Shown: positions 36,102 to 63,095, numbered from the stretch's first letter. The stretch is DNA of 64,000 nt from an uncultured archaeon (GCA_964458565.1 CAYWJO010000008.1:1-64000), one strand, 5' to 3'. A program made the numbers and translations. The notes: generated by a model from the sequence alone, not told the origin.

Positions 36102-36239
36102 TTTTGCATGACCCAATCCAATCTGATGATTACACATTGAAAGTATGAACCATATAAAAACAGTTAGTTGAAGTCTATCCTGCAATGATAGCTAGGAATC
36201 CTTTTGTACAAGGAGCGTTTCTCGGGTTTACGAGGAGAA

Positions 36240-38542: not shown

Positions 38543-38720
38543 CCTATATCGCTCCAAATGTAGTCAAGTGATAATCTTTCTGGCGGAAATCGGACACAAA
38601 TACTTTTGGTCGTAGCAAGCTGCTGAGCGAAAATCAAATCAGTTCGCTAGCTTTTTATGTTGCCAGATTTCACAAGTGACTCACAAAGCAGCTCCACATT
38701 GAGCTACGGAGAGCGTTCTC

Positions 38721-40655: not shown

Positions 40656-40925
40656 ACGTATGAACTTCGATACTACTCAGTCAAGCAAGAGATTAGGAAT
40701 TTGAGAGTTATACTACTATTACCTGAGATGATTATCGGATTAAATAAATGGTAACTTCTCCCTCGTAGGATAGATATCTGGATGTTCAAAATCAAGCATT
40801 TTTTGGTTTTCAAGTTTCAAAATACATACTCAACTATCGTTAAAACTGATTCAGAACGAACAAGTATATATGGCCATAATTGCCGATGCTTTAAACACCT
40901 TCCAGAAGAATGGAGCTAAAAACAA

Positions 40926-42305: not shown

Positions 42306-42331
42306 TACGAAATGGAGAAACCACGGATGGG

Positions 42332-42370
42332 AACGGATGTAAATCATCCGTTTACCTCCTATTTTTTTTC
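42332..42370 (+). terminator. Hairpin plus T-tract after the multiheme cytochrome gene
   Basis: AACGGATG taaat CATCCGTT then T8. Confidence 0.6.
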
Positions 42371-42490
42371 CATTAGGCCTTCCACTTGGAACTAGGCACT
42401 CTCTTTTTACCATTCTGATCTATTCTATGAACATCCATATGATGTACGTTCATAACTCATGATTTCACAATTTAAGGAGTATATTGACAA

Positions 42491-44659: not shown

Positions 44660-44677
44660 TGGTTGGAGGTAAAAATT

Positions 44678-47092: not shown

Positions 47093-47105
47093 TTTGCTAA
47101 GACAG

Positions 47106-47137
47106 AGCAACCATCACAGGTCATCTTGTTGGTTGCT
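47106..47137 (+). terminator. Possible hairpin after ccmF
   Basis: AGCAACCA ... TGGTTGCT inverted repeat. Confidence 0.35.
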
Positions 47138-47276
47138 TCTGCTAGTATTATTTACATGATGGAACTGATTCAAGATAAAAAGGATACAGAGTGTAAAGAC
47201 CAACATCTTTATGGGTATGATTTAGTGGCAGAATGAACATTATTGCTGCCTGTGATAGCGCTCAAATTGAAATCAT

Positions 47277-47915
47277 TTGGTGAGATTTGCTTTGGTTCGA
47301 GTCATTGGAATATCAGGAACACACCGAAGTGGAGGAAATACAACAGTCCTAGTTGAGGAAGCATTGAAAGCTTCTTCGGAATTGGGTGCTGAAACTGCAC
47401 TTATCGAACTCTGTGGACTTAAGTTGGTTCCCTGTAAACACTGTGGAGAATGTACAAAGTTACGTAGCTGTAACCAGGACGATGATCTGAATCGAGTTGT
47501 TGACACTATGCATGCTGCTGACGCAATAATATTGGGGGCTCCTGTTCACTTTGGTTCAGTTCCTGCACCCATGAAGAACCTAATAGACCGCGGTGGTCGT
47601 TTTGCAGATTTTGCTGGTAAGGTTGGCGCAGCACTCGTAGTCAGCCGAAGATCCGGAATAGACATGACCCTTTCACAACTTCACTTTTTCCTATTGGTCA
47701 AGGAGATGATTGTTCCAGGTATCCCTTCATGGCCTATCGGATTTGCTCTTAATCCTGGGGATATTCGAGCAGACACTGAAGCAATGGCAGCAGCAAGAAC
47801 TCTTGGATATCGCGTTACAGTACTCACTCAGTATTTGAAAGAAAAGCCACTTCCTTGGACAAATGGCATCCCGGTTACAAAGGATTCGAAGAAATTTGGT
47901 GATGAGTGGAAATAG
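47277..47915 (+). CDS. Iron-sulfur flavoprotein (Isf / flavodoxin-fold family)
   Basis: GISGTHRSGGNT, CKHCGECTKLRSC, ADAIILGAPVHFG. Confidence 0.85.
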   Translation: MVRFALVRVIGISGTHRSGGNTTVLVEEALKASSELGAETALIELCGLKLVPCKHCGECTKLRSCNQDDDLNRVVDTMHAADAIILGAPVHFGSVPAPMKNLIDRGGRFADFAGKVGAALVVSRRSGIDMTLSQLHFFLLVKEMIVPGIPSWPIGFALNPGDIRADTEAMAAARTLGYRVTVLTQYLKEKPLPWTNGIPVTKDSKKFGDEWK

Positions 47916-47926
47916 GTTCCTGCTCT

Positions 47927-48301
47927 TCAAGTTTCATATTTACTTGGACACTGAACAAGCACTTGATTTGCTCTTATGGTACTTGGAGCTTGATATGTCC
48001 CAATAGCGACAATATCTTGATCATCTTGCATTGCCGGAACTTCCCCTGTAAGTATCACAAGAAGTGTATGATTAACTCCATAAATTGTGAATGTCGTATT
48101 TGATGTACTTGTGTCAAGTGAACCTGCCAGATACTTTCCTTTTATCTGAACAGAGTATCCGTCATATAGTTCGGGGTTTTCAACCACTCTGTCAACACTG
48201 AGGTATGGATCTACAAAGGAGTTCAACATTACAACCGCTACAATTCCAATAGTTGCAATCAAGATGACTGAAACTGCAATTGCGGTGTGTTTCTTCTTCA
48301 A
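47927..48301 (-). CDS. ccmE: Heme chaperone CcmE (CxxxY variant)
   Basis: N-terminal TM helix, OB-fold-like body, C-terminal VQCPSKY. Confidence 0.88.
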   Translation of the reverse strand: MKKKHTAIAVSVILIATIGIVAVVMLNSFVDPYLSVDRVVENPELYDGYSVQIKGKYLAGSLDTSTSNTTFTIYGVNHTLLVILTGEVPAMQDDQDIVAIGTYQAPSTIRANQVLVQCPSKYET

Positions 48302-48306
48302 TTATC

Positions 48307-48444
48307 TTATTCCTCCTCTTCGGTAGTTATGATTGTCTTGAGTGCTTTGTCAATTCGTTCCATCTTGAGGTAAAGCCAAAGCAAGAATACAAACATTCCT
48401 CCCCAGAGGATAGTTGCTACTGTGAATAATTCAGCTTGTTGCAT
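48307..48444 (-). CDS. ccmD: CcmD-like small membrane protein (45 aa; not in ORF track)
   Basis: MQQAELFTVATILWGGMFVFLLWLYLKMERIDKALKTIITTEEEE; one TM helix plus charged tail; AGGAG upstream; between ccmC and ccmE. Confidence 0.75.
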   Translation of the reverse strand: MQQAELFTVATILWGGMFVFLLWLYLKMERIDKALKTIITTEEEE

Positions 48445-48448
48445 TATA

Positions 48449-49117
48449 CTAACTCCTTGTCATTCTGTACTTCATTAGTTTTTCTTCTGCAGAATCCACC
48501 AGGTATGTCAAATCCAGCAGTAGAATATAGAGAAGTCCTATTGCTATCATACTAAACATGAGGGTGATTCCGTGTTCCATTCCCATCTGCAGACCACTTC
48601 CAGTGATGACTTGAGGATGAAGTGTATCCCAGATCTGTATTGAGAAATAACTGAGGATAACAGCTGGAAATGCAATTACTCCAAAAATGGATCCGAATTG
48701 AGCTTGCATTTCTCTGTCATCAACAGATGATCTATAGACTAAAAGACATGCATAGGCTATCCACAGAATCAATGTAGTTGTCTCTCTAGGGTCCCAATTC
48801 CACGGTGTTCCCCAAGTGGCGTTTGCCCACATCATGCCACTAAGTAGTGTAATTGTAGTGAACGCTAAACCGATTTTGATTGAAGCTGCAGAGATTACAT
48901 CATACTTCAAATTACCTTTCCATAGATAAATGACTGAGCATACCAGAGTTACTCCAAATGCCGCATAGGAAACCAGTGCTGGAGCAACATGTTGGAAAAA
49001 GATCCTGATAAGTTCTTCAAGCTCTTTCTCAGGAGGGGCGAATATCCAAGTTGTCCAGAGATAGATCACGCAGAATATTCCGACAATCTCCATGAATATG
49101 AGCCTTTTTGTCAACAC
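48449..49117 (-). CDS. ccmC: Heme exporter / WWD-domain protein CcmC
   Basis: RIFFQHV, WANATWGTPWNWDPRET, WDTLHP. Confidence 0.93.
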   Translation of the reverse strand: MLTKRLIFMEIVGIFCVIYLWTTWIFAPPEKELEELIRIFFQHVAPALVSYAAFGVTLVCSVIYLWKGNLKYDVISAASIKIGLAFTTITLLSGMMWANATWGTPWNWDPRETTTLILWIAYACLLVYRSSVDDREMQAQFGSIFGVIAFPAVILSYFSIQIWDTLHPQVITGSGLQMGMEHGITLMFSMIAIGLLYILLLDLTYLVDSAEEKLMKYRMTRS

Positions 49118-49183
49118 TTGAGATTCCTCTCGAATGGCTGTTCTGAAATCTTTCGGAATATGAAGGTTACGTTATAGTAAATT

Positions 49184-49894
49184 TCAAGGTGAAAGAGCAT
49201 AGCTAAATACTCCTGCTGATAGCGTTATCATTGCAACTAAATGTGCTAGTAAAGCTACAAATAGTAACGAGACAGTGAGTCCTGCGGCAATTACAACAAC
49301 CGTTCCGGTGGCCATCACTCGCGTTATTTCAATAAGTAGTATCAACCCTGAGGTTGCTGTTGGGAAATACACTAGAGGGAAGATGGTAGCTTTCGATTCT
49401 GAGGGCATCGTTAATGCAGAAGCCATGGAACCAACCGCAGCCAAGTCAAGTGTTCCAATAATAAGAGTTGCAACGACAAGGAGTGGTTCTTCACCAAACA
49501 TCGTGAATCCAAAGAGTACCTGGATTACAGGAATTATGAAAATCTCTACCAATGACATCAAAACGAACCCGTAGATCACTTTTCCTATATAGACTGACCA
49601 AGCTGGAATTGGTGCAACTGAGAGACCTCGAAGTGTTCCTGATTCTGATTCTGCGAGGAAGATTGGAGCAAATCCAAACATTCCTGTAAAGAAAACAATA
49701 ACCCAGATGAGTGCAGCTCCAATTGCCGCCTCTCCTCCTAAATCTTCAACAAGAGCAGAGGGAAGTGCAAATGAGAAAGCTAGTCCTGCAATCAAGGCAA
49801 AAAGGAGCATGGAGAAGATCTCAAACTTCTTCCTCACCTGACTCAGAATGTCCTTCTTTGCTATCTTGAGAGCTGCATGAAATCCTGACGCCAT
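49184..49894 (-). CDS. ccmB: CcmB ABC permease
   Basis: Six TM helices, ESESGTLRGL..P motif, between ccmA and ccmC. Confidence 0.85.
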   Translation of the reverse strand: MASGFHAALKIAKKDILSQVRKKFEIFSMLLFALIAGLAFSFALPSALVEDLGGEAAIGAALIWVIVFFTGMFGFAPIFLAESESGTLRGLSVAPIPAWSVYIGKVIYGFVLMSLVEIFIIPVIQVLFGFTMFGEEPLLVVATLIIGTLDLAAVGSMASALTMPSESKATIFPLVYFPTATSGLILLIEITRVMATGTVVVIAAGLTVSLLFVALLAHLVAMITLSAGVFSYALSP

Positions 49895-49904
49895 TTATTT
49901 CACC

Positions 49905-50594
49905 TCAAAGTACTCCATCAAACTCCGATGCTGGACCAGAACTGAGAACCTCTCCCTTTCTCAGAGTGACATAGTCATCACATAACTCAACCCCTAACTG
50001 GAGATTGTGAGTGGTCAGAATTACTGTGCGAGATTTTCGTATCTCTCCCAGATATTCTTTGAATACTTCAGTTGTGTCCCGGTCAAGGCCTGAAAATGGC
50101 TCATCTAGAAGAAGTAATTCAGGTTCGTGTAATAACGATCTAACGATGTCAAATCGTTTTCGAAGACCAGTTGAAAGAATTTTGACAGGTTCGTGTAACC
50201 AGCTTTTGACTCCGAAAATTTCAGTAAGTTTTGTGGAGTTCACGTTGAGTATTTCTTTACTTAGTCCATATAGTCCAGCATAGAATTCCAAGTTTTCATA
50301 TCCCGATAATTCTCCGTAGAGGAGATCCTTGTCTCCTACTATCCCAATGCGCTCACAAACCTCTATCGACTCTTCAATGGGATCGTACCCTAGAACACGT
50401 ATTTTGCCACCATGAGGACGAAGGAGTGTCGAAATGATTCGCATCAGAGTTGTTTTACCTGCACCGTTGGCACCGAAGAGACCGTGGATTCCATTTACAG
50501 GAAATTTGATGTCTACATTCTTTAGGGCTACTCTGTATCCATATCTCCTAGTAAGTTTGGTTGTTTCGATAGCCTCACTTGACAAATGACTCAC
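49905..50594 (-). CDS. ccmA: CcmA ABC ATPase
   Basis: GANGAGKTT, LSTG, LLLLDEP, TTH; first gene of ccmABCDE. Confidence 0.85.
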   Translation of the reverse strand: MSHLSSEAIETTKLTRRYGYRVALKNVDIKFPVNGIHGLFGANGAGKTTLMRIISTLLRPHGGKIRVLGYDPIEESIEVCERIGIVGDKDLLYGELSGYENLEFYAGLYGLSKEILNVNSTKLTEIFGVKSWLHEPVKILSTGLRKRFDIVRSLLHEPELLLLDEPFSGLDRDTTEVFKEYLGEIRKSRTVILTTHNLQLGVELCDDYVTLRKGEVLSSGPASEFDGVL

Positions 50595-50652: not shown

Positions 50653-52383
50653 CTAATGGAATATCTTCCTGAACAGACGCATGAATGGTCCGCCCATTGT
50701 CAGAGTAAATGGCATTGGTACATAGTTTGCTACTTCAACCACTGCTGTGCCTGCAATCAACCCAATGATAACAGCCTGGAAAACTGTCCAGAGGTCTTTT
50801 ATCATTAGCCAGCTAACAAATCCTGCTAATAGATCAGGTACAATGAGTCCTGCTACCCATAATCCGATAGGTGCAGCAATCGCGGCCCCAATTAGTATCA
50901 AGAGATTCATTCTCAGTGAAAGACGCATCGGTCCAGGAAATACCGCATGTGGATTCAGCTTACCCTTTGGGTCAGTCTTCTTCTTTAATTCCGCCATCTG
51001 AGCATACCGGTCCTCTCCAAAGTATCTCCGTGAATGTGATACGTTCCACATTCCAATTGAATACGGACGTCCACCATTCTTGAGACCAATATCAATGAAG
51101 TCCAATGATCTATACCATCCCATCAGGAAGGATATTTTCTTACGTTCATCATCTAGGAACCAGCAAAGAACAGCCACTTGTTTATCGATGTTGACAGCTC
51201 CTTCAGCTGCAAATCTTTCACCCTTGAAATGTTTCTCAATTTGTTCCAAGAAGAGATCCATCTGGTCCAGAGGAACATACACTTCGGATGGTGCAACACT
51301 TGGTCCAAGCCTTTTCACTCGCATTGGATAAAACCTTTCAGCCCATTCATGATGGGCGATCTCATCAGATTCGATAGTACCTCCATGGTAACTGACTATC
51401 TTCTTGAAATCCTCCACATCTTGAGTGATTTGCTCGTCGATATCTTCGTATGTACATGAGATTACCCAGGGGCCGGTGGTATCTGGAGCAAGTCCTAACT
51501 CTGCCAGCATTCCGTAGAAAACATCAGTGACAAAGTGAAGATAGAATGGGTTGGTGGTTTCCTTGATGTGCATACAAGCTGCAAGCATCGATTCCTTGTC
51601 CTGAAATGATGCAGCTAGAGGTTTTACTGTCCTTAGTGGAATAATCTTCAAAACAACTTTGGTAATTATACCCAAAGATCCGTTACTATCAATGAAGAGA
51701 TCTGTCAGGTTGAATTTCTTTTCAATTTCAGGAGACCAGTAGTATGTGTCATTTCCTGGAAAGTATGTATATTCCTTCTTGATGAGATTATCTACAAGTC
51801 CTTCGGGAGCATCTGCAGTTCTTATGATTTCTCCATTTGGTAACACGATTTCTAGGTCAACAACTTGTTGTTCAACACCACCATATTTCGTGCTACCTAT
51901 TCCAGTGCCACCTGCAGCTACCCAACCTCCAACAGTTGAAGCTGGTGCACTAGATGGATATGCACATAGAGTTAGGCTTTGTTCCTCAAGAGCTTCTAGT
52001 AGAGTGCTCCAAATTATTCCTGCTCCAACTTCGATTGTCATATTGTTCCTATCGATACTGTGGATTTCATTCATTCGTGTTGTTTCCACAATTAATCCGC
52101 CTACCGTGGGAATGGCACCTCCATAACCTGACGTACCATGACCCCTAGGAACGATAGGAATCTTATTGGCAAGACAATATTGAATCAGTTTTGAAACGAC
52201 TTCCGAGGATGTAGGTTGAGCAACTCCATCAGCTTCTGTGTAGAGCAAATCATTGACAATACCTGGAAGTGAGGCTATGTCATGGGAGTATAATTTCCTC
52301 ATGTAATCGTCAGCTGAGAAGAAGTCTTCACCAACGATATCAGCAATATCTTGTTTTTGATTGTCCTTGAGCATTGTATTCAC
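50653..52383 (-). CDS. FAD-linked oxidoreductase (GlcD-like) with C-terminal TM helices
   Basis: PRGHGTSGYGG, STVGGW, SNGSLGIIT, DPKGKLNP; hydrophobic C-terminal ~85 aa. Confidence 0.88.
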   Translation of the reverse strand: MNTMLKDNQKQDIADIVGEDFFSADDYMRKLYSHDIASLPGIVNDLLYTEADGVAQPTSSEVVSKLIQYCLANKIPIVPRGHGTSGYGGAIPTVGGLIVETTRMNEIHSIDRNNMTIEVGAGIIWSTLLEALEEQSLTLCAYPSSAPASTVGGWVAAGGTGIGSTKYGGVEQQVVDLEIVLPNGEIIRTADAPEGLVDNLIKKEYTYFPGNDTYYWSPEIEKKFNLTDLFIDSNGSLGIITKVVLKIIPLRTVKPLAASFQDKESMLAACMHIKETTNPFYLHFVTDVFYGMLAELGLAPDTTGPWVISCTYEDIDEQITQDVEDFKKIVSYHGGTIESDEIAHHEWAERFYPMRVKRLGPSVAPSEVYVPLDQMDLFLEQIEKHFKGERFAAEGAVNIDKQVAVLCWFLDDERKKISFLMGWYRSLDFIDIGLKNGGRPYSIGMWNVSHSRRYFGEDRYAQMAELKKKTDPKGKLNPHAVFPGPMRLSLRMNLLILIGAAIAAPIGLWVAGLIVPDLLAGFVSWLMIKDLWTVFQAVIIGLIAGTAVVEVANYVPMPFTLTMGGPFMRLFRKIFH

Positions 52384-53567
52384 TACTCCAATCCTAATGC
52401 TTCGGTAACAATTTCTGAGAGATCTTTGAAGACAATCTCTGATTCCATACTTTCAAGACCATCGTTGAATGACATTGTGCAAGACGGGCATTCGCTTGCT
52501 AGGAATTCCGCCCCGGTCTTCTCTGCAGCTTTTAGTCGTCTTTGAGAGATTCTAATAGACATAAGCGGATTTGTACCTTTGAGTAGTCCGCCACCACCAC
52601 AGCAATCTGCTTTATTCCGATTGTGCTTCAACTCCTTCAATTCCAGTCCAGGAATTGCTTTGAGAACTTCACGAGCGGGATCGTAGATATTCTGATGGCG
52701 ACCCAGTTCACATGGGTCATGCCATGCCACCTTGTGATTATAGGGTTTCGTAAACTTGATTTTTCCTTCCTGTATCTTCTTCAAAATAAATTGTGAGAAA
52801 CTAAGAAATTCGAATCCTTCAATTGCTGCGTGTCCTAGAAGATGTTCATATTCTTCGGAAAATGCTCGGTGACAACCTGGACAATTGAATACTACTGTCT
52901 TTACTCCAAGTTTTCTTAGCTTTGAGAGATGGTGCTCTGCTGTTTCTCTTGCTTTTTCAAATTCACCCGCAACAAAGTACGGATTCCCACAGCAATATTC
53001 TTCCTCTCCTAAAATTGTGAAGTCAAGTCCAAGATGGTTGAATATTTTGATTGTGTTTTCTCCCAGCTTTGCCAAAGTTCCCTTGAATGAGATATTGCAA
53101 CCAGCAAAATACGCTACTTCTGCTTCGACATCAATTCTGTCCTCAACAAGATCATCAATCATGTCAGTCCAGATAGTACGGTCAGATTGGTCAAGATCCA
53201 TTATGTTGTGGCTATTCTCAATCGATTGGTCCAAGAATTTCACAGTCTCTGGCCATTCATCTAGATTACCTATTTCATTTCGAATAAGTTGCCAGAATCT
53301 CAGTAGGGGTATGTTTGTCTGACAAATATCTTGACATGCTCCACATAATGTACATTTGAAAATACGGTCTGCGAAATCAGCGGGAATTGGTTTTCCTTCC
53401 TTTATGAGGGATTTCAGTTGATATAACTTCCCTCGCGGTGATTGAGAGTCCCATAAAGTGTCTAAGTATGCTGGGCAGACAAAGGTGCAATATCCACATC
53501 TTGCACATACTGTGGGCTCGATGTCTAGGGTTTCCTTTTTCAGTGCTTCAAAGAGATCGTTTCCCAT
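52383..53567 (-). CDS. GlcF/HdrD-like CCG Fe-S protein
   Basis: CARCGYCTFVCP, CTLCGACQDIC, YCCG, NCPGC, HDPC, CCGGGG, ECPSC. Confidence 0.9.
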   Translation of the reverse strand: MGNDLFEALKKETLDIEPTVCARCGYCTFVCPAYLDTLWDSQSPRGKLYQLKSLIKEGKPIPADFADRIFKCTLCGACQDICQTNIPLLRFWQLIRNEIGNLDEWPETVKFLDQSIENSHNIMDLDQSDRTIWTDMIDDLVEDRIDVEAEVAYFAGCNISFKGTLAKLGENTIKIFNHLGLDFTILGEEEYCCGNPYFVAGEFEKARETAEHHLSKLRKLGVKTVVFNCPGCHRAFSEEYEHLLGHAAIEGFEFLSFSQFILKKIQEGKIKFTKPYNHKVAWHDPCELGRHQNIYDPAREVLKAIPGLELKELKHNRNKADCCGGGGLLKGTNPLMSIRISQRRLKAAEKTGAEFLASECPSCTMSFNDGLESMESEIVFKDLSEIVTEALGLE

Positions 53568-53588
53568 TTTGTTCTCCTCTTAATTTCT

Positions 53589-54092
53589 TCATGGCCAAGG
53601 TAGACCTATCCAATGGAGTAATGGGTCCAGAATAGATTCTCCATAAACAGCAACACCACCCAAAGCTCCCAGGAAGACCATAAGCATCCCGCCGATGATG
53701 GCTACAATGCCATAGGTTAAGAATGATACTCTGCCAACCCAGATACGGTCTCCGACTTTGGCACGTACGACTACAAGAAATATGTAAAGCTCTGTTGCGA
53801 TGACTGACCAGAGAATCTTGAATCTCATAATTGGATCCGCAATAAGAATATCAACAGGCCAAGCTGGTTCCATAAATCCAGTTACCATTCCTGCAATTAG
53901 ACCAATGAGTCCTATTATATTACCCCAGAAAATGAAGATGTCTAGCTCATGGAATATCTTTGCCATTCTTGTGCCGGGTGTTCGAATCGCTTCGCGGTAC
54001 ATCAATCGAAGCAACAAATTAATCATGACCACAACTGCAACTGCTGCAAGAATTCCTGTATGGAAGTGGACAAATGTTGGATGAATTGCCAT
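53589..54092 (-). CDS. DUF2231-like 4-TM membrane protein; likely start ATG 54092
   Basis: MAIHPTFVHFH, AGMVTGF, GALGGVAVYG pattern; AGGAGG upstream. Confidence 0.65.
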   Translation of the reverse strand: MAIHPTFVHFHTGILAAVAVVVMINLLLRLMYREAIRTPGTRMAKIFHELDIFIFWGNIIGLIGLIAGMVTGFMEPAWPVDILIADPIMRFKILWSVIATELYIFLVVVRAKVGDRIWVGRVSFLTYGIVAIIGGMLMVFLGALGGVAVYGESILDPLLHWIGLPWP

Positions 54093-54094
54093 TA

Positions 54095-54688
54095 TTATGC
54101 CCTCCTGATGATATAGATTGCTAATATGATCATTATAATCCCAACAAGCGGTATCAGTATAAACATCATTGTGTACCAAATGCTGATGAGTTCAGCAGGA
54201 TCAACTGGTTCAGTAGGTGTGAATCCAGTTGTTGCTCCTTCAACATCAACTTCGATATCAACACTATTCGCGTTTGGATATTCTCCACCGACCCAAATTC
54301 TAAGAGTATACTGTCCTCCTACTAAAGGTGTCACTTCTATTTCTACAGAAATTTCGCCTTCTGCAGAATTTGTGTCACCAGCACCATTGTCATGGACCAC
54401 TTGTGTGGAATAATCAAACATATCGTTGTCAACAGTACTCCAAGATTTTTCTATACGCAAGAGAATGGCGCCTCCAGTGGCATCTATGGTTACTGTGAAT
54501 GGTTCATCAACTGAAGCCGCCACAGTCCCTGTAACATCTGTGTTGATATTGATTGATGCAGCATTATCATGGCATCCTCCACACTCAGCTGTTTGGGTCA
54601 AAGTTGCTGAAACTATATTCGCTCCAGCGGTAACAATAAGAATTGTGCTTAGGAAACCAAAAATAAGAATCATATGGGTTCTCTTCAT
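54095..54688 (-). CDS. Monoheme c-type cytochrome with beta-sandwich domain and C-terminal TM anchor; likely start ATG 54688
   Basis: Signal peptide, CGGCH just after it, C-terminal TM helix plus RRA; GGTGA upstream. Confidence 0.7.
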   Translation of the reverse strand: MKRTHMILIFGFLSTILIVTAGANIVSATLTQTAECGGCHDNAASININTDVTGTVAASVDEPFTVTIDATGGAILLRIEKSWSTVDNDMFDYSTQVVHDNGAGDTNSAEGEISVEIEVTPLVGGQYTLRIWVGGEYPNANSVDIEVDVEGATTGFTPTEPVDPAELISIWYTMMFILIPLVGIIMIILAIYIIRRA

Positions 54689-54915
54689 TGTTTCACCGTA
54701 TCCGCATTTTCCATTCAAATTTTACAATTTGAATTTCGATTTGAAACCAAATGAATGATATATGAGCATATCGGAATATTCCTTATTCTCTCACACTGTA
54801 TAAACAGTTACACTTGGAAGCCAATTAACGTATAAATGGTTTCGAGATATAATTAGCTGATGGAATTAGCTATCCTCTTCTATATATTTTGAATAAGAAT
54901 TTAATCAAATGATTA

Positions 54916-56640
54916 CTATTTGTTCCAAATTCGACCCATTAGACGTAAAAATGGTAGAGCTAATGAAAAAGCCAAATTCAGTGTCATTAAGTGAGCCATA
55001 ATGTAACCCAAGATACCTCCCCCGATACTGCCAAGAATAAAAACTGGTATTGGAAAATTTGGTAATATAGGATTCATTAAGAATTCAGTAAGCCAACTCA
55101 ATCCTAGTAAAGGTGGACCAAATAGAGCTGCAATCAAAAATACGATTGCTCCTGCGATAAATCCAGCTGCTTGTGTCTTCCTACCTGGAATAACTCTTCC
55201 ACCAAAGACTTTCATTGGATTCATTAGATTATTGGGATCTACTTTCTGTTTCAAACTTCGGAGTGCATAGTATAGATCTTTGCCAAAGAAATCTTCTGAA
55301 TATTTGGCATTCCACAATCCTATTGCATATGGCTTACCGCCATAGCGTACAGCTCTGGATGTAATCTCGAAAGGTCGATACCATCCAGCTAGGTATGAAT
55401 ACTTGTTTCGCTCATCATCAAGGACCCATGCAAGAAAACCAGTGAAACCATCTTTGCTAATGGTACCTTCCACTGCGAATTTTTCCCACTCGATTGAACT
55501 TGATATTTCCATATAGAACTCATTTAGATTCTCAAGTGGAATCAGTACTTCAGATGGTACAATGCTGGGACCATATCTCTTTATTCGAAGTGGAAAAAGC
55601 CTTTCTCTCCAATAATAGCTAGCCCGTTCTTCACTTAATATGATTCCTCCTGTTTCTTTCAGAATTATATCAATGAATTCTAAGCTATCATCATTTTCGT
55701 AAATCGTATTCATCAAAGCTCCAGTCAGAATAAACTCGTTCATTTCAGAATCGTACCCAATGAGTGCTTTGAGTTTTGATGTATAATTATCAGCAAGAAA
55801 GCGAAGATTGAATGGTTTTGCTTTTTCTAGAATCAATATTGCTGCTTTCATCAGAGTCTCCATGTCATGGAATGCACAAGCAAAGGGTCTCAGCTGCAGC
55901 ATGGGTACTATCTTGAGAGTAGCTTTTGTGATAAAACCAATCGTTCCATATGTTGCTACTACTGCTTCGAGGAGGTTATCATGTGGAAAATTTTCTTCTA
56001 ACCAACTACATTCATTCTCATCTAACGGATCGTTTTCTAACACCAATTTTCCTATTCGAACTATTTTGCCATTGGCTAGCACGACCTCGAGACCAAGAAT
56101 CTGATCTGCAATTTCACCAAACATAGCAGAGCCAATTCCAATACCTCCACTAGCTATGAATCCTCCAACAGTTGCAGCAGTTGCACTTGATGGATAAACA
56201 GGAAGTGTTGATCCCAGCTTTTCTAAAAACATCAATAGTTCTCTGTATATTATACCTCCCTCTACTGTCACAGTAAGTCCAAAATTATCAAGGTGTAATA
56301 TCGTTGACATTCGATTGAAATTCACGCATATTCCAGCCTTAGCAGGAATTGCACCTCCCCATCCCGAAGTCCCGCTGCCTCTTGGTACTAAGGGCATCTT
56401 TTTTTCATTCGCGTACAACACAAGCCTCCGAAGAGATTCCACCGTTCTTGGCTGAGCGATTAGATCAAATTTTTTTCTAATTATCTGCTCGGTCAGACTT
56501 GGTAAACTAGCTACATCGTTTTCGTATGCAACGCAAGACTCTCTAATGGTTGAAACTCCATCAGCTCCAACAATGTCTTCTATATGTTGGATCTCCGTGC
56601 TATCTAAATTGACCACTACTCCTTTTCCTCCTTGAGACAC
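54916..56640 (-). CDS. FAD-linked oxidoreductase (GlcD-like) with C-terminal TM helices
   Basis: PRGSGTSGWGG, ATVGGF, TYGTIGFIT, DPNNLMNP; hydrophobic tail. Confidence 0.88.
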   Translation of the reverse strand: MSQGGKGVVVNLDSTEIQHIEDIVGADGVSTIRESCVAYENDVASLPSLTEQIIRKKFDLIAQPRTVESLRRLVLYANEKKMPLVPRGSGTSGWGGAIPAKAGICVNFNRMSTILHLDNFGLTVTVEGGIIYRELLMFLEKLGSTLPVYPSSATAATVGGFIASGGIGIGSAMFGEIADQILGLEVVLANGKIVRIGKLVLENDPLDENECSWLEENFPHDNLLEAVVATYGTIGFITKATLKIVPMLQLRPFACAFHDMETLMKAAILILEKAKPFNLRFLADNYTSKLKALIGYDSEMNEFILTGALMNTIYENDDSLEFIDIILKETGGIILSEERASYYWRERLFPLRIKRYGPSIVPSEVLIPLENLNEFYMEISSSIEWEKFAVEGTISKDGFTGFLAWVLDDERNKYSYLAGWYRPFEITSRAVRYGGKPYAIGLWNAKYSEDFFGKDLYYALRSLKQKVDPNNLMNPMKVFGGRVIPGRKTQAAGFIAGAIVFLIAALFGPPLLGLSWLTEFLMNPILPNFPIPVFILGSIGGGILGYIMAHLMTLNLAFSLALPFLRLMGRIWNK

Positions 56641-57836
56641 TTAGCAACAAGCTCAGCTAAATCCAACCTGTCTATTGAATAATTGATTGAATTGAATGCG
56701 ATATCGAATGCAATCTTGCATCTTGGACACTCAGTCACAAGGAGTGTAGCAGGAGTTACAGATACCTCTCTACATCTTCTCTCTGCAATTCTTGAAGCCA
56801 TTAGTGGGTCTACGCTACTCAAGAGGGCATGGTTTCCACAGCACTTTGTTTCCTTCTCTGAAGCCAACATTTCAACATTGTATACTCCCGGGATTCTTTC
56901 GATAACATCTCTTGGTTCTCGCGTAATCCCTAGTCTTCTGGCGGAAACACAAGGATCATGAAATGTTGCTGTAATCATTGGCTGTTCTTCATATTCAAGT
57001 CTGCCCTCTGCATTCAACCTGTGTATGAATTGTGAAGTAGTTAAAAGTTCAAATTCCTTAGCAATCGATACTCCAAGAAATTCTCTATAAACGGTCCGCC
57101 AGGTATTGATACAAGAAGGACAACTAAACACAATGGTGTTAACACCCAAATCTCTCATTAAGTCAGTATTCTTATTTGCTAATTCAGGAGCACTTTCGTA
57201 GTCTCCTGTCCATAATAAAGGAGCTCCACAGCAAACTTCCTGCTCTCCTAAAAGAGTAAAGTCAACATCAGCGTGCTGCATGATTTTTACCATTGATCGC
57301 GGTATTCCTTGCACCTGTGCCTTCATAGTAGCGTTGCATCCTGCAAAATATGCAACACTCGCATTTCTCCTGATATGGGGATTCACCATGTCTTCAATAC
57401 CTTCTGCCCATATCATACGATTACCTGGTCCCATCCAAAACGGGTCTCCGTATTTCAACATGGAGTCCCGAATTGCCTGAATTGGTGCTGGTAAGAGTCC
57501 TGCTTTAGCCGCTTCAGCTCTGGTGAGTTCCCAGAATCGATCTAATTGTATAGACGTTGTACAAACTGATGAGCAATGTTCACAAAGACTGCAAAGGAAA
57601 ATCTTTCTTGCAAATTCTTCATCAAAGTCTGCTTTACCTTCGAAAATTGATTTCATTACGGAAAGCTTACCTCGAGGACCGTATTGCTCCCATTCCATTT
57701 CATTGAACACTGGACAAACCATTGTGCAATTTCCGCATGAAGCACATACATAGGGTTCTGCCTTCTGTCCCTTCATTCGAAGTGCTTCAAAGTCAGTCAT
57801 GGAATAGTCCTCGGAGTCATTTGCTACTTTTTTCAC
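56616..57836 (-). CDS. GlcF/HdrD-like CCG Fe-S protein
   Basis: CASCGNCTMVCP, CSLCEHCSSVC, VCCG, SCPSC, HDPC, KCCG, ECPRC. Confidence 0.9.
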   Translation of the reverse strand: MKKVANDSEDYSMTDFEALRMKGQKAEPYVCASCGNCTMVCPVFNEMEWEQYGPRGKLSVMKSIFEGKADFDEEFARKIFLCSLCEHCSSVCTTSIQLDRFWELTRAEAAKAGLLPAPIQAIRDSMLKYGDPFWMGPGNRMIWAEGIEDMVNPHIRRNASVAYFAGCNATMKAQVQGIPRSMVKIMQHADVDFTLLGEQEVCCGAPLLWTGDYESAPELANKNTDLMRDLGVNTIVFSCPSCINTWRTVYREFLGVSIAKEFELLTTSQFIHRLNAEGRLEYEEQPMITATFHDPCVSARRLGITREPRDVIERIPGVYNVEMLASEKETKCCGNHALLSSVDPLMASRIAERRCREVSVTPATLLVTECPRCKIAFDIAFNSINYSIDRLDLAELVAKCLKEEKE

Positions 57837-57857
57837 AGGGAGCTTAAAGAAGTCTTG

Positions 57858-57879
57858 GGAGTGCCTGTTATGGCACTCC
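57858..57879. terminator. GC-rich intergenic hairpin
   Basis: GGAGTGCC tgttat GGCACTCC between co-oriented genes. Confidence 0.45.
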
Positions 57880-57893
57880 TCGTTTCAGAATGA

Positions 57894-59222
57894 TTATGTG
57901 AAGTCTTCTGTCATCTCTTTTGCACATGCAATACCGGATCTAGATGCAGCTTCCATTGAGGCATAATAGATTCCGCAATTTGCATGTGAACCGGCAACAT
58001 ATAGGCCTTCAACGCCAGTTCTGTTTGTTTTCAGCCGGTCTCCTAAAATACCTGGGGGTTGAGCTAATAGTGATCTCCATATCTTCCAACTCTTCTTCCA
58101 TGTGACCTTGTCCTGAACACCTGGTATCAGTTCCTTTAGTTCATCAAGGATTGCAGATGTTGCTTCTTCGTCGCTCATTTTGAGAAGCTCCTTGTCGATA
58201 CTAGTAACTGTCAAGAGTGACTCTCCGATAGGTGCTAAGACTCCTGAAACTCTTTTCGCCTCAGCAATGATATTAATTTTCTTTCCAGGAACAAATCCAC
58301 CTACGTTGAAGTCAAGGACACGAGATGAGAGTCCGAAATATGCGACAGTCGAAGGTACATATGAAAACTTCTTACATGCATTAGTAAAATCACTGGGTAA
58401 TTTGTTCATATTCACAAGGTTTGGAAGTAAATCAATTGGAGTTGTGATTACAGCAATGTCAGTTTCAACGGTATAATCAACACCGTCCTGTTCATATTCC
58501 ACTGCATGTACCTTATTATCTTCAATCACTACTTGCTTTACGGTACAATTGACTTTTGGTTCAACAGCAAAGTTACGTGCTTGTAGCATGAGTGTATAGG
58601 GAACACTACCAAGACCGCCTCTTTCTGGATACATTGCAACGAATCCATCTTCATACGCAAAACGCATTTTCTCTGATTGGAGGTATTGTCCTGCTGAAAC
58701 CTCCTGTGGTGTCATAAATGTGGTGGTACGAATTAGTGGGTCATAGAAATCATTGAGAATCTCTTCAGACATCTTATCCTCAGCATATTCAGCGAATGTC
58801 ACATTGTCAAGTTGTGCGAATTCCTCATCAGGTCTCCGAATGTTATCCTGAACAATAGTCCCTAGTTTAGCTCTATCGCCTCGATCCAAGAGACCAAACC
58901 TTGCTAAGTCTGTAACTGACTGACGCATGACATATCTCTCGCCACCTTTCAGCCAAACTGCTCCTTCACCAACTGTTGTCATTCGAATCCCGCTTCTTTC
59001 AAGAATCGGTATAAGGGACTTGAAGCCACCTACGAAGAAGTGAAGACCTTGATCAAAGACATAACCAGACTCAGTGTATGAACGAGCCCTTCCTCCAACA
59101 GTTTTTTCTTTTTCTAGAATTGTACATCGTGCTTTCAAACCTTTCAGTTCAAGGGCGCAACTGAATCCTGCGATTCCAGCTCCCACAATGATGACTTTCG
59201 TTCCTCTTTTCTTTTCACTCAT
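57894..59222 (-). CDS. FAD-dependent oxidoreductase of the amine oxidase / phytoene desaturase / protoporphyrinogen oxidase superfamily
   Basis: VGAGIAG, GGRARS..GYVFDQGLHFF, GLYVAGS..ASMEAASRSG. Confidence 0.82.
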   Translation of the reverse strand: MSEKKRGTKVIIVGAGIAGFSCALELKGLKARCTILEKEKTVGGRARSYTESGYVFDQGLHFFVGGFKSLIPILERSGIRMTTVGEGAVWLKGGERYVMRQSVTDLARFGLLDRGDRAKLGTIVQDNIRRPDEEFAQLDNVTFAEYAEDKMSEEILNDFYDPLIRTTTFMTPQEVSAGQYLQSEKMRFAYEDGFVAMYPERGGLGSVPYTLMLQARNFAVEPKVNCTVKQVVIEDNKVHAVEYEQDGVDYTVETDIAVITTPIDLLPNLVNMNKLPSDFTNACKKFSYVPSTVAYFGLSSRVLDFNVGGFVPGKKINIIAEAKRVSGVLAPIGESLLTVTSIDKELLKMSDEEATSAILDELKELIPGVQDKVTWKKSWKIWRSLLAQPPGILGDRLKTNRTGVEGLYVAGSHANCGIYYASMEAASRSGIACAKEMTEDFT

Positions 59223-59226
59223 TTTC

Positions 59227-60351
59227 TTATTCCTCCACTACAGATGACCTTGCTAGGTCTAGAATCAATTCATCCAACTGAATAACTTCAATATCGAAAT
59301 CTCGTGCGTTATAACTCAAATTCTTGAAACAAGATATACAGGTTGTAATGAGACCATCCGCACCAGTATCAACAGCTTCTTGGACACGCTTCTTACCAAC
59401 TGCCTCAGCGAGATCGGGATCTAGAACTGCGAGAAAACCTCCACAACAATTGGAATTCTCATGATTTCCAGCCATTTCTCTTAATTCAATACCTGGAATT
59501 CCACGAATAATCTCTCGGGGTGCTTCATAGATACCAAGAGCACGACCAAGATGACAACTATCATGAAATGTATACACTCCCTCCAAGCTCTTGAACGTTA
59601 GAACACCATTCCGAACCATATCTGCTATGTACTCAACGGTATGATGTACTTCAATATCGAACTCAGGGATAAGACGTTTGTAATGCTCTGCAAGTGTTCC
59701 GAAACATCCACCACAACCTGTGACAATGTGGTCCACTCCTGCTTTTTTGAAGGCATCATAATTCTTTTGGGCAATCTCCTTGAATCCTTTATCATCACCA
59801 GCCCAATAATTCATTAGCCCACAGCAGACTTCACTTGGTATATATCCTGCATTTATCTTCAATTTCTCCATCAGGTCTACAACCATCTCAGATTGATCTG
59901 GGAAATAATATGAACCCATACACCCACTGAAGATCGCAGTGTTGGATTCAGGTGGCAGTTCTAAGTCCTCGGCCCAGACATCTCGGTCTTCGCCCTCGAA
60001 TCCAATAAAAGGCGTTCCCTCTTGCTTTACCCAGGCCAATACTTGGATGAGCGAGTCTGACATCTTACCACCACTATTGAGTAGTGATGCTTTTGCGTCA
60101 TGCCAAATGTCAGTGACAGGCACATTTGCAGGACAGACTGCCTCACACATTCGACAATCTGCACAGTATAGTCGATTCAGTAGTTCTTGTGGTGGATTCC
60201 ACATCTTCTCTCGATAAGCTCTAAGAGCTCGTATTTTTCCTCCTGGACTGTCTAATTCCGAACCAAGTTGTTGATACATGGGACAGAAGTCTCGACAGTA
60301 ATTGCAAGAGCCACAATGTCGTAGTAGTTTATCATCTATGTCAATCTTCAC
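59227..60351 (-). CDS. GlcF/HdrD-like CCG Fe-S protein
   Basis: CGSCNYCRDFCP, CADCRMCEAVCP, VCCG, GCGGC, HDSC, NCCGG, TCISC. Confidence 0.9.
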   Translation of the reverse strand: MKIDIDDKLLRHCGSCNYCRDFCPMYQQLGSELDSPGGKIRALRAYREKMWNPPQELLNRLYCADCRMCEAVCPANVPVTDIWHDAKASLLNSGGKMSDSLIQVLAWVKQEGTPFIGFEGEDRDVWAEDLELPPESNTAIFSGCMGSYYFPDQSEMVVDLMEKLKINAGYIPSEVCCGLMNYWAGDDKGFKEIAQKNYDAFKKAGVDHIVTGCGGCFGTLAEHYKRLIPEFDIEVHHTVEYIADMVRNGVLTFKSLEGVYTFHDSCHLGRALGIYEAPREIIRGIPGIELREMAGNHENSNCCGGFLAVLDPDLAEAVGKKRVQEAVDTGADGLITTCISCFKNLSYNARDFDIEVIQLDELILDLARSSVVEE

Positions 60352-60358
60352 TTCTGAA

Positions 60359-61882
60359 TCACGCTCCTATGAACTTCGAGAGCCATCTAAACTTAGTGGC
60401 AAGTTGGAAAAGGATATCGATTCGACCATATGATGTCAAACATGATGTAATCCTATCAGGATTCATGATGTTAAGAGGATCCCATTCCTCTTTCGCCCTC
60501 TTGATTTCTTCGTATTTTATCGGATATGCTCTCTTCATATAGATGCTATTTTGTAAACCAATGGTATATGGTGCTCCACCATGACTAATGGACTTCTTCA
60601 CCATTTTGTGAAGAACTCCCTTACTGGCGATAAATTTCAGATAATGATCTGGATTTATCATAGCAAACAATTCAATACGCATGAACTCTTGCGTTCCCAA
60701 CATACCGTACCAGAGGGCAGGTACTTTGTGTGAAACTCTGTAGTCTTCGTATTTCTTTAATAAATCGTATACAGATTCTAGCGGAACCCAGAGTTCTTGA
60801 AACATGAGTGTTTCGCAGTGTTCCTTTGGATTAAATTCTGAATCATGTCTTAGTTCCCACTCTTTATCTGAAAACTCTTCACCTAAGAATTCTCCTCCAT
60901 GACCCGTAGTTGCTGCTTCAAGTTCAAATTTACTAGTGGGATCGAAATTTTGCAGTATAGCATCTGAAGAATAGGTTACAGTCAGGACAAAGTTTCCTTT
61001 CTCCAAAGGATTGCTATACTTCTGCAGTTCCTTGTCTGCAATCTTCAAGAAGATTGGTTTGTATGCCATTTTGGTAATTTCTCGCACAGCAAGGCAGAGA
61101 TGCTCTAATCTTTTGAATCCGTACGAGTAGGTTTCGTAATTCTCAGGTTGCTTGTGTACCTTAAGAGTGACCTCTGTAATAACACCAAGTATTCCATAAG
61201 ACCCGCAAATAATTCCAGCTTCTTCTCCTGTAAGTGTCATCATTTCACCATCAGGTTTGACAACTTTGAGTTCAAGAATGTGGTCCTCGAGTATGCCATA
61301 GAATGGAGTACCAATCCCCGCACGTCCACCACACCCAATCCAACCGCCAATGACTGCAGATTTAGCGCTGGTTGGATAGATGCCAAAGGTTAATCCCTTT
61401 TTTACAAGTTGTTTTTCAAGAGCATCGAAAGTGACGCCTGGTTCAACTGTTACATATTCTTGGTCTTCGTTTATTTCCAGAATATGATTCATGAGTTTTA
61501 TATCCAATGAGATACCACCTCGTGTTGGACTTGATGAGCCCAAACAACTCGAAGCGCCGCCTCTTGGAATCACTGGCACCTTAGATGCATTGGCAATCCT
61601 CAATACGCTCTGTACTTCTTCAACTGAAGTAACTCGAACAACATAATCCACAAGGCTTTTTCTCTTCCATCGATAATGGAACTGTGGTAGTGACGCCGGA
61701 TCACCACTATACACGATTCTCTCAAGTTCCATATCTGAAGCACGACTTTCCCCCACAACAGCTATAAGCTGATTTAGTATTGGGTCAACATCTTGTCCTT
61801 CTTCAGGAATAGGCTCCATCTTTTTTCCAGTTTCTTCATCAGCAGGAGATACCTCAGTTTCTACTTTGTCTTCGCTTCCCAT
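60359..61882 (-). CDS. FAD-linked oxidoreductase (GlcD-like); likely start ATG 61882 (track gives 61930)
   Basis: PRGGASSCLG, AVIGGW, GSYGILGVIT, DPLNIMNP. Confidence 0.88.
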   Translation of the reverse strand: MGSEDKVETEVSPADEETGKKMEPIPEEGQDVDPILNQLIAVVGESRASDMELERIVYSGDPASLPQFHYRWKRKSLVDYVVRVTSVEEVQSVLRIANASKVPVIPRGGASSCLGSSSPTRGGISLDIKLMNHILEINEDQEYVTVEPGVTFDALEKQLVKKGLTFGIYPTSAKSAVIGGWIGCGGRAGIGTPFYGILEDHILELKVVKPDGEMMTLTGEEAGIICGSYGILGVITEVTLKVHKQPENYETYSYGFKRLEHLCLAVREITKMAYKPIFLKIADKELQKYSNPLEKGNFVLTVTYSSDAILQNFDPTSKFELEAATTGHGGEFLGEEFSDKEWELRHDSEFNPKEHCETLMFQELWVPLESVYDLLKKYEDYRVSHKVPALWYGMLGTQEFMRIELFAMINPDHYLKFIASKGVLHKMVKKSISHGGAPYTIGLQNSIYMKRAYPIKYEEIKRAKEEWDPLNIMNPDRITSCLTSYGRIDILFQLATKFRWLSKFIGA

Positions 61883-61886
61883 ATCA

Positions 61887-63095
61887 TCACATCCTAAATA
61901 ACACACCGAGATAAACCCCAGTAAATCCAAGTAATGTCCAAAGAATAACAGCAGGAAGTCCTAGATTACATGTCTTCCATCCACCAAGATGTGTAAGGAA
62001 TGCAAGTGTGCCAAGAATCATGCTAGTAATTCCAATCCAAATATGCCAACAATGTATGAAAGTTAACATATTTGTAAGGTCGAATAGATACTGCGGGTTC
62101 ATATTGTTCCATGTTGATGGTCCTTCGAGTAAGAGAAATAGGACATTAATTGATGTGAGGATATATGCCAGACTGAGCATGATTCCATGTCCTCTAGTGA
62201 ATCGCTCCTCATCATAATATTCTAAGGCTGTACCAATGTATGCTAACACCAACGCAGGTAATCCCAAATACCATCCATAATGTAATTGTGGAATCTCAAT
62301 AGGTTCCACTGGGATGAATCCTGCAACATATGAGTTCACACCTGATTCAGTTTCTAGTCCATCAATATCAGACGCGATCACCTTGTAAAGTACTTCAGTA
62401 CCATAAACTTGAGCTGGAATATCGCCATCATAATAATATGAAGACACTTCAGTCATAGTGACGTTATTCCATGATGTCCCATTATTGATTGAGTATGAAA
62501 GAATGACTTCATCAATATCTGCGGTTGATTGCAAGGTGGCATTTATTGTAACATCTTCATTTGCTGGAGGATACTCAGAACTCTGACCAATACTTGTAAA
62601 GATAGGTCCTTCTCCAGAAGCAGCAACGGTGACAGTTACACTCACTTGATCATTATTTTGTGAACTACCAACTGCAAAAAGAGTTAGAGTATATTCTCCT
62701 GGAAACGCAGGAGCAGTTATGGTATATGAGATGGTCATTGCACCAGATGCTGGGTTATCATCACCCTCCCCATTATCGTAAACTCCACCCTGTGCATTCT
62801 CAGGGGATATATCGAAATTGGTATTATCGTCAACATCTCCTGGGAATTTAGCATAGAGATACGATAATGAACCTCCACCGGTTATATCTACATCCAACTG
62901 AAATTCTTGACCAGTTTCTGTTGATATAGATGATGGTGCACTTATCGAGATTGTTCCTGTATTATTGTGGCATGAAGCACAGTTAATATCATAGGTACTG
63001 TTTGCTCCAACAAATCCTATTGATACAACAATAACCGCGACTAAACACGATGCAATAAGGATGCCAATTTTTGTGTTCCTTTTCAACTGAGTCAC
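61887..63095 (-). CDS. Monoheme cytochrome c + Ig-like domains fused to a His-containing 4-TM (cytochrome b-like) domain
   Basis: Signal/TM, CASCH, beta-rich domains, then TM helices flanked by LHYG, GHGIM, IHCWHIW, THLG. Confidence 0.65.
   Translation of the reverse strand: MTQLKRNTKIGILIASCLVAVIVVSIGFVGANSTYDINCASCHNNTGTISISAPSSISTETGQEFQLDVDITGGGSLSYLYAKFPGDVDDNTNFDISPENAQGGVYDNGEGDDNPASGAMTISYTITAPAFPGEYTLTLFAVGSSQNNDQVSVTVTVAASGEGPIFTSIGQSSEYPPANEDVTINATLQSTADIDEVILSYSINNGTSWNNVTMTEVSSYYYDGDIPAQVYGTEVLYKVIASDIDGLETESGVNSYVAGFIPVEPIEIPQLHYGWYLGLPALVLAYIGTALEYYDEERFTRGHGIMLSLAYILTSINVLFLLLEGPSTWNNMNPQYLFDLTNMLTFIHCWHIWIGITSMILGTLAFLTHLGGWKTCNLGLPAVILWTLLGFTGVYLGVLFRM

Follow-up and report, generated by a model that had tools for sequence, protein, structure and literature searches.

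We analysed a 64,000-nucleotide (nt) window from an uncultured archaeon (GCA_964458565.1 CAYWJO010000008.1:1-64000), which contains a minus-strand run of 14 genes, here called A to J and followed by ccmA, ccmB, ccmC, and ccmE, that encodes exported proteins with haem-c-like motifs, transmembrane (TM) four-helix units with conserved histidines, iron-sulfur (Fe-S) proteins with CCG domains, and flavin adenine dinucleotide (FAD)-linked oxidases. The names of homologs assign the host to the Thorarchaeota, an Asgard lineage. Asgard archaea are the closest known relatives of eukaryotes, and reconstructions of Thorarchaeota usually depict a fermentative, acetogenic, or mixotrophic life with little membrane redox chemistry. 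The host genome is 93% complete, and DNA of the gene run was found in salt-marsh metagenomes by a search of sequencing runs, among which no RNA dataset was listed. No paper describing the module was found in the literature searched on Thorarchaeota and Asgard cytochromes, multihaem proteins, and extracellular electron transfer. The module is real, conserved, and undescribed, and it would work like the EtfD/EMO, HdrDE, and Tmc/Hmc systems while being built from different parts.

Table 1. The gene run and its surroundings, with positions counted in the window unless a locus or contig is named
Feature	Coordinates	Strand	Description
A	61887..63095	minus	402 amino acids (aa); exported mono-haem-c-like domain, second beta-sandwich, C-terminal 4-TM His module
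B	60359..61930	minus	VAO/GlcD-fold FAD-linked oxidase without TM tail; PF01565 4.5e-37, PF02913 2.1e-8
C	59227..60351	minus	HdrD-like, 2x[4Fe-4S] motifs and two CCG domains; PF02754 1.8e-32, two stretches
D	57894..59222	minus	amine-oxidase/HpnE/phytoene-desaturase-like FAD protein; PF01593 4e-35; HpnE 6e-33, below cut-off
E	56616..57836	minus	HdrD-like Fer4 + 2xCCG protein
F	54916..56640	minus	FAD-linked oxidase, C-terminal tail of ~90 aa with two TM helices; PF01565 6.3e-34, PF02913 2.1e-12
G	54095..54718	minus	exported mono-haem-c-like beta-sandwich (CGGCH), Thr/Pro linker, C-terminal TM anchor
H	53589..54092	minus	167 aa, 4-TM, probably a divergent DUF2231 protein; begins MAIHPTFVHFH
I	52383..53567	minus	HdrD-like Fer4 + 2xCCG protein; PF02754 5.4e-37
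J	50653..52383	minus	FAD-linked oxidase, two-helix TM tail, invariant C-terminal His
ccmABCE block	47927..50594	minus	Pfam ABC_tran, CcmB, Cytochrom_C_asm, CcmE; directly after J
ccmA	49905-50594	minus
ccmB	49184-49894	minus
ccmC	48449-49117	minus
ccmE	47927-48301	minus
Two-helix tail of F	54916-55190
Two-helix tail of J	50653-50940
C-terminal end of G	54095-54250
Adjoining island	33870..47915	.	geranylgeranyl reductase, polyprenyl synthase, MenA-like prenyltransferase, fourth CCG protein, FAD-oxidase-NuoB fusion, NrfA-like cytochrome, 722-aa protein, CcmF, flavin mononucleotide (FMN) reductase
Prenyl gene trio	33870-37322		geranylgeranyl/MenJ-like reductase, polyprenyl diphosphate synthase, MenA-like prenyltransferase
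FAD-oxidase-NuoB fusion	38721-40655	plus	J-like FAD oxidase fused to a NuoB domain
NrfA-like cytochrome	40926-42305	plus	multihaem; 6 CxxCH and 2 Cx4CH
nuo-like operon	L079 1544-13130 (contig C8 64543-76129)		beyond A
PKD/Ig-repeat protein	L080 5122-8865 (contig C6 about 53121-56864)	minus	1247 aa, headed by a C..CH beta-sandwich
Small membrane protein	63319-63864	plus	181 aa, acidic tail, no family match

The genes form three pairs of FAD-linked oxidase and CCG protein (B/C, F/E, and J/I), with D, the best-conserved gene of the run (74-83% identity to orthologs), between C and E. The real start of B is probably the ATG at 61882, and orthologs of B align only from about residue 21-53 in tblastn maps; with this in-frame start, B lies about 4 nt beyond A, and C follows after 7 nt. 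The likely start of G is at 54688, H starts 2 nt beyond the stop of G, I follows H after 21 nt, and I and J overlap by 1 nt. An initial annotation of the window had described two operons, each opened by a secreted C..CH protein and continued by a membrane unit with CCG and FAD genes close behind. All the features that it described are present; two clusters can be recognised, yet their separation rests solely on one gap of ~200-230 nt between F and G (54719-54915), and the CCG and FAD genes do follow each membrane unit tightly, yet they make three pairs instead of two and differ in internal order, FAD then CCG after A and CCG then FAD after H. Beyond that annotation, we add that the two membrane families are not detectably homologous, the His statistics of whole families, the recurrence of a gene triad in two further Asgard families, co-occurrence with Ccm genes, and the context of the wider island.

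The order A-B-C-D-E-F-G-H-I-J is kept in 12 Thorarchaeal genomes from at least five genera, as mapped by tblastn, so the gene order whose recurrence in other archaea the initial annotation had left to be sought is conserved, and the ccm genes come next in those genomes wherever the contig continues. Several genomes carry an extra module between J and ccmA, in which a 4-TM gene standing alone is joined by genes for a B-like FAD oxidase and a CCG protein; the stand-alone protein is 34% identical to the membrane domain of A and retains H272, H303, H348, and H351. In two other Asgard families, A-type 4-TM genes occur with a single ectodomain or with none, and at 10 of 10 such loci examined the next genes are again those of a FAD oxidase and a CCG protein; ccm genes are often found no more than 5 kb away. 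The recurrence of this triad implies that the conserved unit is the 4-TM His module with the FAD oxidase and the CCG protein, the ectodomain being optional. Of 43 genomes of the same family, 14 have the G-H-I-J arrangement with DUF2231, and outside that family there was one weak match among 157 other genomes of the phylum.

The exported proteins that head the two clusters are paralogs, as had been proposed: the N-terminal part of A and G are 30% identical over 156 residues (E 1e-15). Both begin with a hydrophobic helix followed by an AxA-type site, and each has one haem-attachment motif a few residues after its signal peptide. The AlphaFold2 model of A (predicted local distance difference test, pLDDT, 85.5) shows the signal peptide, CASCH at residues 39-43 in a loop of low confidence, two beta-sandwich domains of which the second is Ig/CBM56-like, and four TM helices, and G has a single beta-sandwich. 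C39, C42, and H43 are invariant in 57 orthologs of A, and both Cys and the His are invariant in 14 sequences of A, G, and a third paralog, with the spacing varying among orthologs as CxxCH, Cx3CH, or Cx4CH. A second shared motif had been quoted as VHDNG; its His is not conserved, whereas one Asn and two Asp in the same acidic loop never vary (N88, D100, and D105 in G numbering). A 'choice-of-anchor V' model matches A alone, below its cut-off (E 9.5e-6), and a homolog search with the ectodomain alignment returned five close relatives only. G and its orthologs end in a Thr/Pro-rich linker, a TM helix opening with a conserved Trp, and a basic tail (RR/KR), an end that resembles a sorting-signal-type anchor. 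The third C..CH beta-sandwich paralog heads the PKD/Ig-repeat protein, which may be a cell-surface cytochrome.

Genes for cytochrome c maturation (Ccm) accompany these ectodomains. The ccmF gene lies 3.6 kb beyond the ccmABCE block, and its product carries a TPR-like tail. In one sample of 61 genomes of the same family, CcmC was found in 24 and the membrane domain of A in 23 (both in 20, CcmC alone in 4, the A domain alone in 3, and neither in 34); all positives are confined to five of 16 genera, and every genome with only one of the two belongs to one of these genera. CcmE ends in ..QCPSKYET, with CxxxY in place of the bacterial HxxxY, as in the system I of archaea, and the island showed no ccmD, ccmH, or ccmI. 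The case for haem c on the ectodomain of A and on G, where it would be attached, is circumstantial but consistent.

The 4-TM His module of A spans about residues 268-402, with helices at 274-294, 296-323, 343-370, and 376-399 in the AlphaFold2 model. H272, H303, H348, H351, and H369 are invariant in the 57 orthologs, in agreement with the expectation that the membrane histidines would be conserved. The wider family comprises 56 clusters among 1.84 billion representative proteins, and in its 50 near-full cluster representatives H303 and H351 are present in all 50, H272 in 49, H348 in 40, and H369 in 4. H272 and H351 are placed at the outer face because the TM3-TM4 loop is basic and the N-terminus is exported (positive-inside rule); by the same rule H303 is at the inner face, where the Thorarchaeal fused clade adds H369. 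This pattern fits a single bis-His haem close to the outer face; there is less certainty about a second haem on the inner side. The membrane domain had no match in Pfam, and its profile returned one chance row against the PDB; Foldseek and VIA searches with the whole of A were dominated by Ig-like domains, the membrane part retrieving only de novo bundles and oxidase subunits. A DUF420 identity was considered and rejected (protein-atlas score only 0.83; a whole-genome search with PF04238 misses gene A at E <= 1), b561 and Reeler Pfam models gave no match at E <= 10, and no b561 structure appeared among the VIA rows for the whole of A.

H also has four helices (AlphaFold2 pLDDT 88.9), and its conserved histidines are placed differently: H4, H9, and H11 stand where TM1 begins at the outer face and H48 where TM2 begins at the inner face, all kept in 52 orthologs, in which H160 is not conserved. 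PF09990 matches 35 of the 52 orthologs at E <= 0.01 (best 3.2e-7) and leaves the copy in the window unmatched; P0015, the best of the orthologs scanned singly, reaches 27.3 bits against a cut-off of 26.4. Together with the four helices and the HPxxVHF start that H shares with DUF2231, an uncharacterised 4-TM family for which no function was described in the literature searched, these matches identify H as a putative divergent DUF2231 protein. Foldseek returned no row at E <= 0.001 for H (best STEAP1/2/4, CcmC, and CcsBA at E 0.2-1.3), VIA found generic bundles at Z <= 12.1, under the helical background, and the H profile gave only chance rows against the PDB, with no PDB sequence match.

A C..CH domain fused to a 4-TM His domain in A, and a separate 4-TM HPxxVHF protein following G, are both present as first described, and had been taken for fused and split versions of one design. 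This is not supported for the two membrane units, between which BLASTP found no match and profile-profile comparison (hhalign) gave a probability of 0.3%, and whose His patterns differ (H272, H303, and H351, with H348 and H369, in A; H4, H9, H11, and H48 in H). The idea survives in another form, since the true split version of the A domain is the stand-alone 4-TM gene of other Asgard genomes.

C, E, and I each have a two-[4Fe-4S] ferredoxin part (Fer4) and two CCG domains (PF02754, two stretches each), and none of the 8 + 10 Cys in the cubane and CCG motifs varies among the three paralogs and 11 orthologs. Two CX2CX2CX3C and two CX(n)CCGX(n)CXXC sets, as in HdrD, are found in all three. B, F, and J carry FAD_binding_4 and FAD-oxidase_C domains. 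In alignments of J with LctD (7qh2) and mouse LDHD (8jdb), AEGAVNIDKQ replaces HxGDGNxH and GGRPYSIG replaces GEHGIG, so that J is without the His/His/Glu that binds metal in dehydrogenases of the D-lactate type. For B and F the judgement comes from the paralog motif alone, GG(A/K)PY(T/A)IG, the paralogs reading GGKPYAIG and GGAPYTIG. The glcD equivalog scores 134-148 bits on B, F, and J, about a quarter of its cut-off of 567.9, and the three proteins are not canonical 2-hydroxyacid (lactate or glycolate) dehydrogenases. The two-helix C-terminal tails of F and J are conserved in orthologs. In J the second of these helices has an invariant Glu, and the protein closes with an invariant ..(K/R)I(F/W)H whose final His is at the cytoplasmic face, like His48 of H.

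Among solved systems, the closest are EtfD of mycobacteria (PDB 9ojn) and EMO of Syntrophus aciditrophicus. Both are membrane-bound flavoprotein:quinone oxidoreductases that contain haem b and HdrD-like Fe-S/CCG domains. Electrons in EtfD pass from FAD through CCG clusters and cubane clusters to a bis-His haem b and on to menaquinone (PMC13083937), and EMO, to which it is related, contains three b haems (bioRxiv 10.64898/2026.08.18.745454). The path proposed here would likewise lead from a flavoprotein through CCG and two cubane [4Fe-4S] clusters to a membrane haem b, and I, which keeps both CCG Cys sets, matches residues 406-724 of the EtfD chain 9ojn (E 9.5e-30). Unlike EtfD and EMO, whose donor is ETF and whose membrane part is a fused 5-TM NarI-like domain, the module has a VAO/GlcD-fold FAD oxidase as donor, 4-TM membrane parts of unrelated families, and an added exported haem-c-like domain; the conserved His pair of the A family is also at the outer face, whereas the single haem of EtfD stands beside the inner Fe-S cluster.

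The general analogy to HdrDE, Hmc, and Tmc drawn in the initial annotation is reasonable. HdrDE of Methanosarcina and DsrMK, TmcABCD, and HmcABCDEF of sulfate reducers combine a CCG/HdrD-like cytoplasmic subunit with a membrane cytochrome b, and Tmc, Hmc, and DsrMKJOP also have a periplasmic cytochrome c. Models of TmcB, HmcF, and DsrK match C, E, and I, all far under their curated cut-offs (TmcB 107 bits vs 735). Model searches of the proteins of the run turned up neither a NarI-type cytochrome b nor a tetra- or multihaem c3, and DsrJOP-like genes were likewise missing, so the pairing of a c3 and a NarI-like subunit with the CCG protein that marks Tmc and Hmc is absent. In contrast to HdrDE, Tmc, and Hmc, the outer cytochrome is a mono-haem beta-sandwich and a flavoprotein dehydrogenase is attached, and where NarI, HdrE, and DsrM cytochromes b have 5-6 TM helices and two bis-His haems, both units here have four helices. 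The two-protein core of FAD_binding_4/FAD-oxidase_C and Fer4/CCG proteins is shared with the GlcDEF, Dld-II/LdhAB, and YdiJ-type enzymes, from which the module differs in its replaced metal site and its added TM tails, 4-TM units, and cytochrome c partners. It falls outside EtfD/EMO, HdrDE, and Tmc/Hmc because of its membrane subunits, its mono-haem beta-sandwich, its non-ETF donor fold, and scores far below the cut-offs.

Domain content, conservation of Cys and His, positive-inside topology, gene order, and co-occurrence are observed here, and the following path is proposed on them. The VAO/GlcD-fold proteins B, F, and J would oxidise a cytoplasmic substrate other than a canonical 2-hydroxyacid and pass electrons to the HdrD-like proteins C, E, and I, each of which has a pair of cubane [4Fe-4S] motifs and a pair of CCG domains for non-cubane clusters. 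Two of the modules would continue into the membrane, their Fe-S subunit docking on a four-helix His membrane subunit, either the C-terminal domain of A or H, which would hold haem b and hand electrons to the single outer haem c on the N-terminal domain of A or on the anchored G. Candidates for an outer acceptor or onward partner are the NrfA-like cytochrome, encoded 10 kb away, and the PKD-repeat cytochrome. Attachment of haem c, binding of haem b, contacts between subunits, direction of electron flow, substrate, and acceptor are all putative, and by analogy with the systems above we would give an even chance to a path from FAD (B, J) through the CCG and cubane clusters (C, I) and haem b (the A domain or H) to the outer haem c (A or G).

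Several observations weigh against this path. It is drawn from sequence and gene context, and its haem cofactors are predicted. The stand-alone 4-TM paralogs pair with FAD-oxidase and CCG genes without an ectodomain, so the core module can do without the outer haem c, and the middle pair E/F lacks a dedicated 4-TM gene. In the membrane, the conserved outer His pair of the A family is separated from a cytoplasmic Fe-S cluster by more than one hop could bridge, and since the family as a whole has only one inner His (H303), a second inner haem would be left without an obvious sixth ligand; in H no two conserved His on separate helices share a face, and fold searches of both 4-TM units retrieved generic four-helix bundles only. 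Outside the membrane, no Met or His that could serve as distal haem ligand is conserved in the haem-c-like domain across the 14-sequence alignment, and several distant relatives of A keep only 'CH', the first Cys being absent. The latter (P0234, P0238, P0244, P0278, and P0282) are proteins of ~290 aa with one ectodomain and the 4-TM unit, and a further distant relative, P0260, reads CEDGH; both kinds may be single-thioether or non-haem variants.

The alternative that survives best, which we consider somewhat unlikely, is that the proteins are dehydrogenases coupled to a quinone or other lipid carrier, the 4-TM units serving to anchor them and to reduce the carrier at a site on the inner face, as in the EtfD, GlpC, GlcF, and SdhE systems. 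The outer haem c would then be an accessory that re-oxidises the reduced carrier, giving a redox loop instead of a direct trans-membrane wire. The stand-alone 4-TM paralogs would suit such an arrangement, as would the invariant single inner-face His of each unit (H303 in A, H48 in H), and CCG proteins reduce quinone in the solved EtfD and EMO, although the best-conserved His pair of the A family is at the outer face. A source of carrier is suggested by the prenyl gene trio of the island (GGR, IdsA, and MenA-like), which lies inside the cluster itself in a genome of another genus, G167 (L076 16920-19890), and by D, which resembles HpnE and phytoene desaturase, a class that acts on isoprenoids. 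The best matches of the MenA-like protein, at 133 bits, are all MenA models, but it falls below every curated cut-off, and of the menaquinone head-group genes the 93% complete genome yielded no match to MqnA/D, MqnC, or MenD and only sub-threshold crotonase-type matches to MenB. Prenyl genes without a head-group pathway could serve an unrecognised prenylated carrier.

Genome studies have proposed a thiol or disulfide role for the GlcD-HdrD pairs of other archaea, and the same could be imagined here, with the HdrD-like subunits reducing a heterodisulfide-type or other thiol substrate and the membrane and cytochrome proteins serving to anchor or regulate them. The CX(n)CCG...CXXC sets of HdrB non-cubane clusters are complete in both CCG domains, and HdrB and TfrB models are among the matches; yet the solved CCG enzymes with membrane partners, EtfD and EMO, use the same clusters for plain electron transfer, and the strict linkage to His membrane units, exported C..CH domains, and Ccm would be left unexplained; we consider this role improbable. 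Very improbable in our judgement is a module without haem, a biosynthetic or lipid-modifying cluster in which the C..CH domains bind another metal or form a disulfide and the membrane histidines bind metal. The 'CH' and CEDGH relatives, the want of a conserved distal ligand, FAD oxidases that are without the dehydrogenase metal triad, and relatives of their fold such as DprE1 and AGPS that act on lipids would all accord with it, whereas no Thorarchaeal copy departs from the two Cys and the His, the linkage to a complete Ccm set is tight both physically and at the level of genera, and a paralog of the same domain heads the PKD-repeat surface protein. Most improbable is that H is a haem-handling or assembly factor for G, accessory to a reduced archaeal Ccm, rather than a redox subunit: its outer-face His cluster, its start just past G, the nearby ccm genes, the weak Foldseek rows to CcmC and CcsBA (E 0.6-1.3), and a weak Pfam Cytochrom_C_asm match on an H ortholog (E 0.028) are offset by the fact that all these similarities are below significance, that H is translationally coupled on its other side to CCG and FAD genes, and that the fused paralog A suggests a stable redox partnership of ectodomain and membrane unit.

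The path from flavoprotein to outer haem c may belong to a larger apparatus, parts of which are encoded in the adjoining island. The NrfA-like cytochrome (Cytochrom_C552 38.6 bits vs a cut-off of 24.1) is the genome's one clear multihaem c gene by motif count, and it is conserved in G167 (L076) together with the 722-aa protein and CcmF. The FAD-oxidase-NuoB fusion carries the only NuoB found, no other being detected by tblastn in the genome. The nuo-like operon, which lies beyond A at higher coordinates, reads A-J-K-C-D-H-I-M-L-M-N, with two NuoM genes and no nuoB; this suggests a complex-I-like pump with the fused flavoenzyme as its electron-input head. In genome G134, the FAD-oxidase-NuoB fusion and the fourth CCG protein adjoin the cluster.

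We consider it possible, though doubtful, that some Thorarchaeota and the two other Asgard families carry a lineage-specific apparatus for respiration or extracellular electron transfer, in which non-canonical VAO-type flavoenzymes feed HdrD-like Fe-S proteins, two undescribed haem-b four-helix families, and mono-haem beta-sandwich cytochromes c in turn, and a paralogous flavoenzyme fused to the only NuoB of the genome heads a complex-I-like pump in parallel. If this is true, these archaea would be respirers or electron exporters and not pure fermenters, and an electron wire of the HdrD/EtfD/EMO type would be placed in a new setting. The genus-restricted, conserved island, with its Ccm genes, NrfA-like cytochrome, three or four flavin/Fe-S modules, and NuoB-fused complex-I-like operon, points to an undescribed respiratory option, and its two small, tractable membrane families (the DUF2231 relative and the 56-cluster family) are candidates for new haem-b or carrier-binding folds.

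Upstream of A lies the gene of the small 181-aa membrane protein, a 37% identical homolog of which follows the FAD-oxidase-NuoB gene in G134 (L078 7509-8036).

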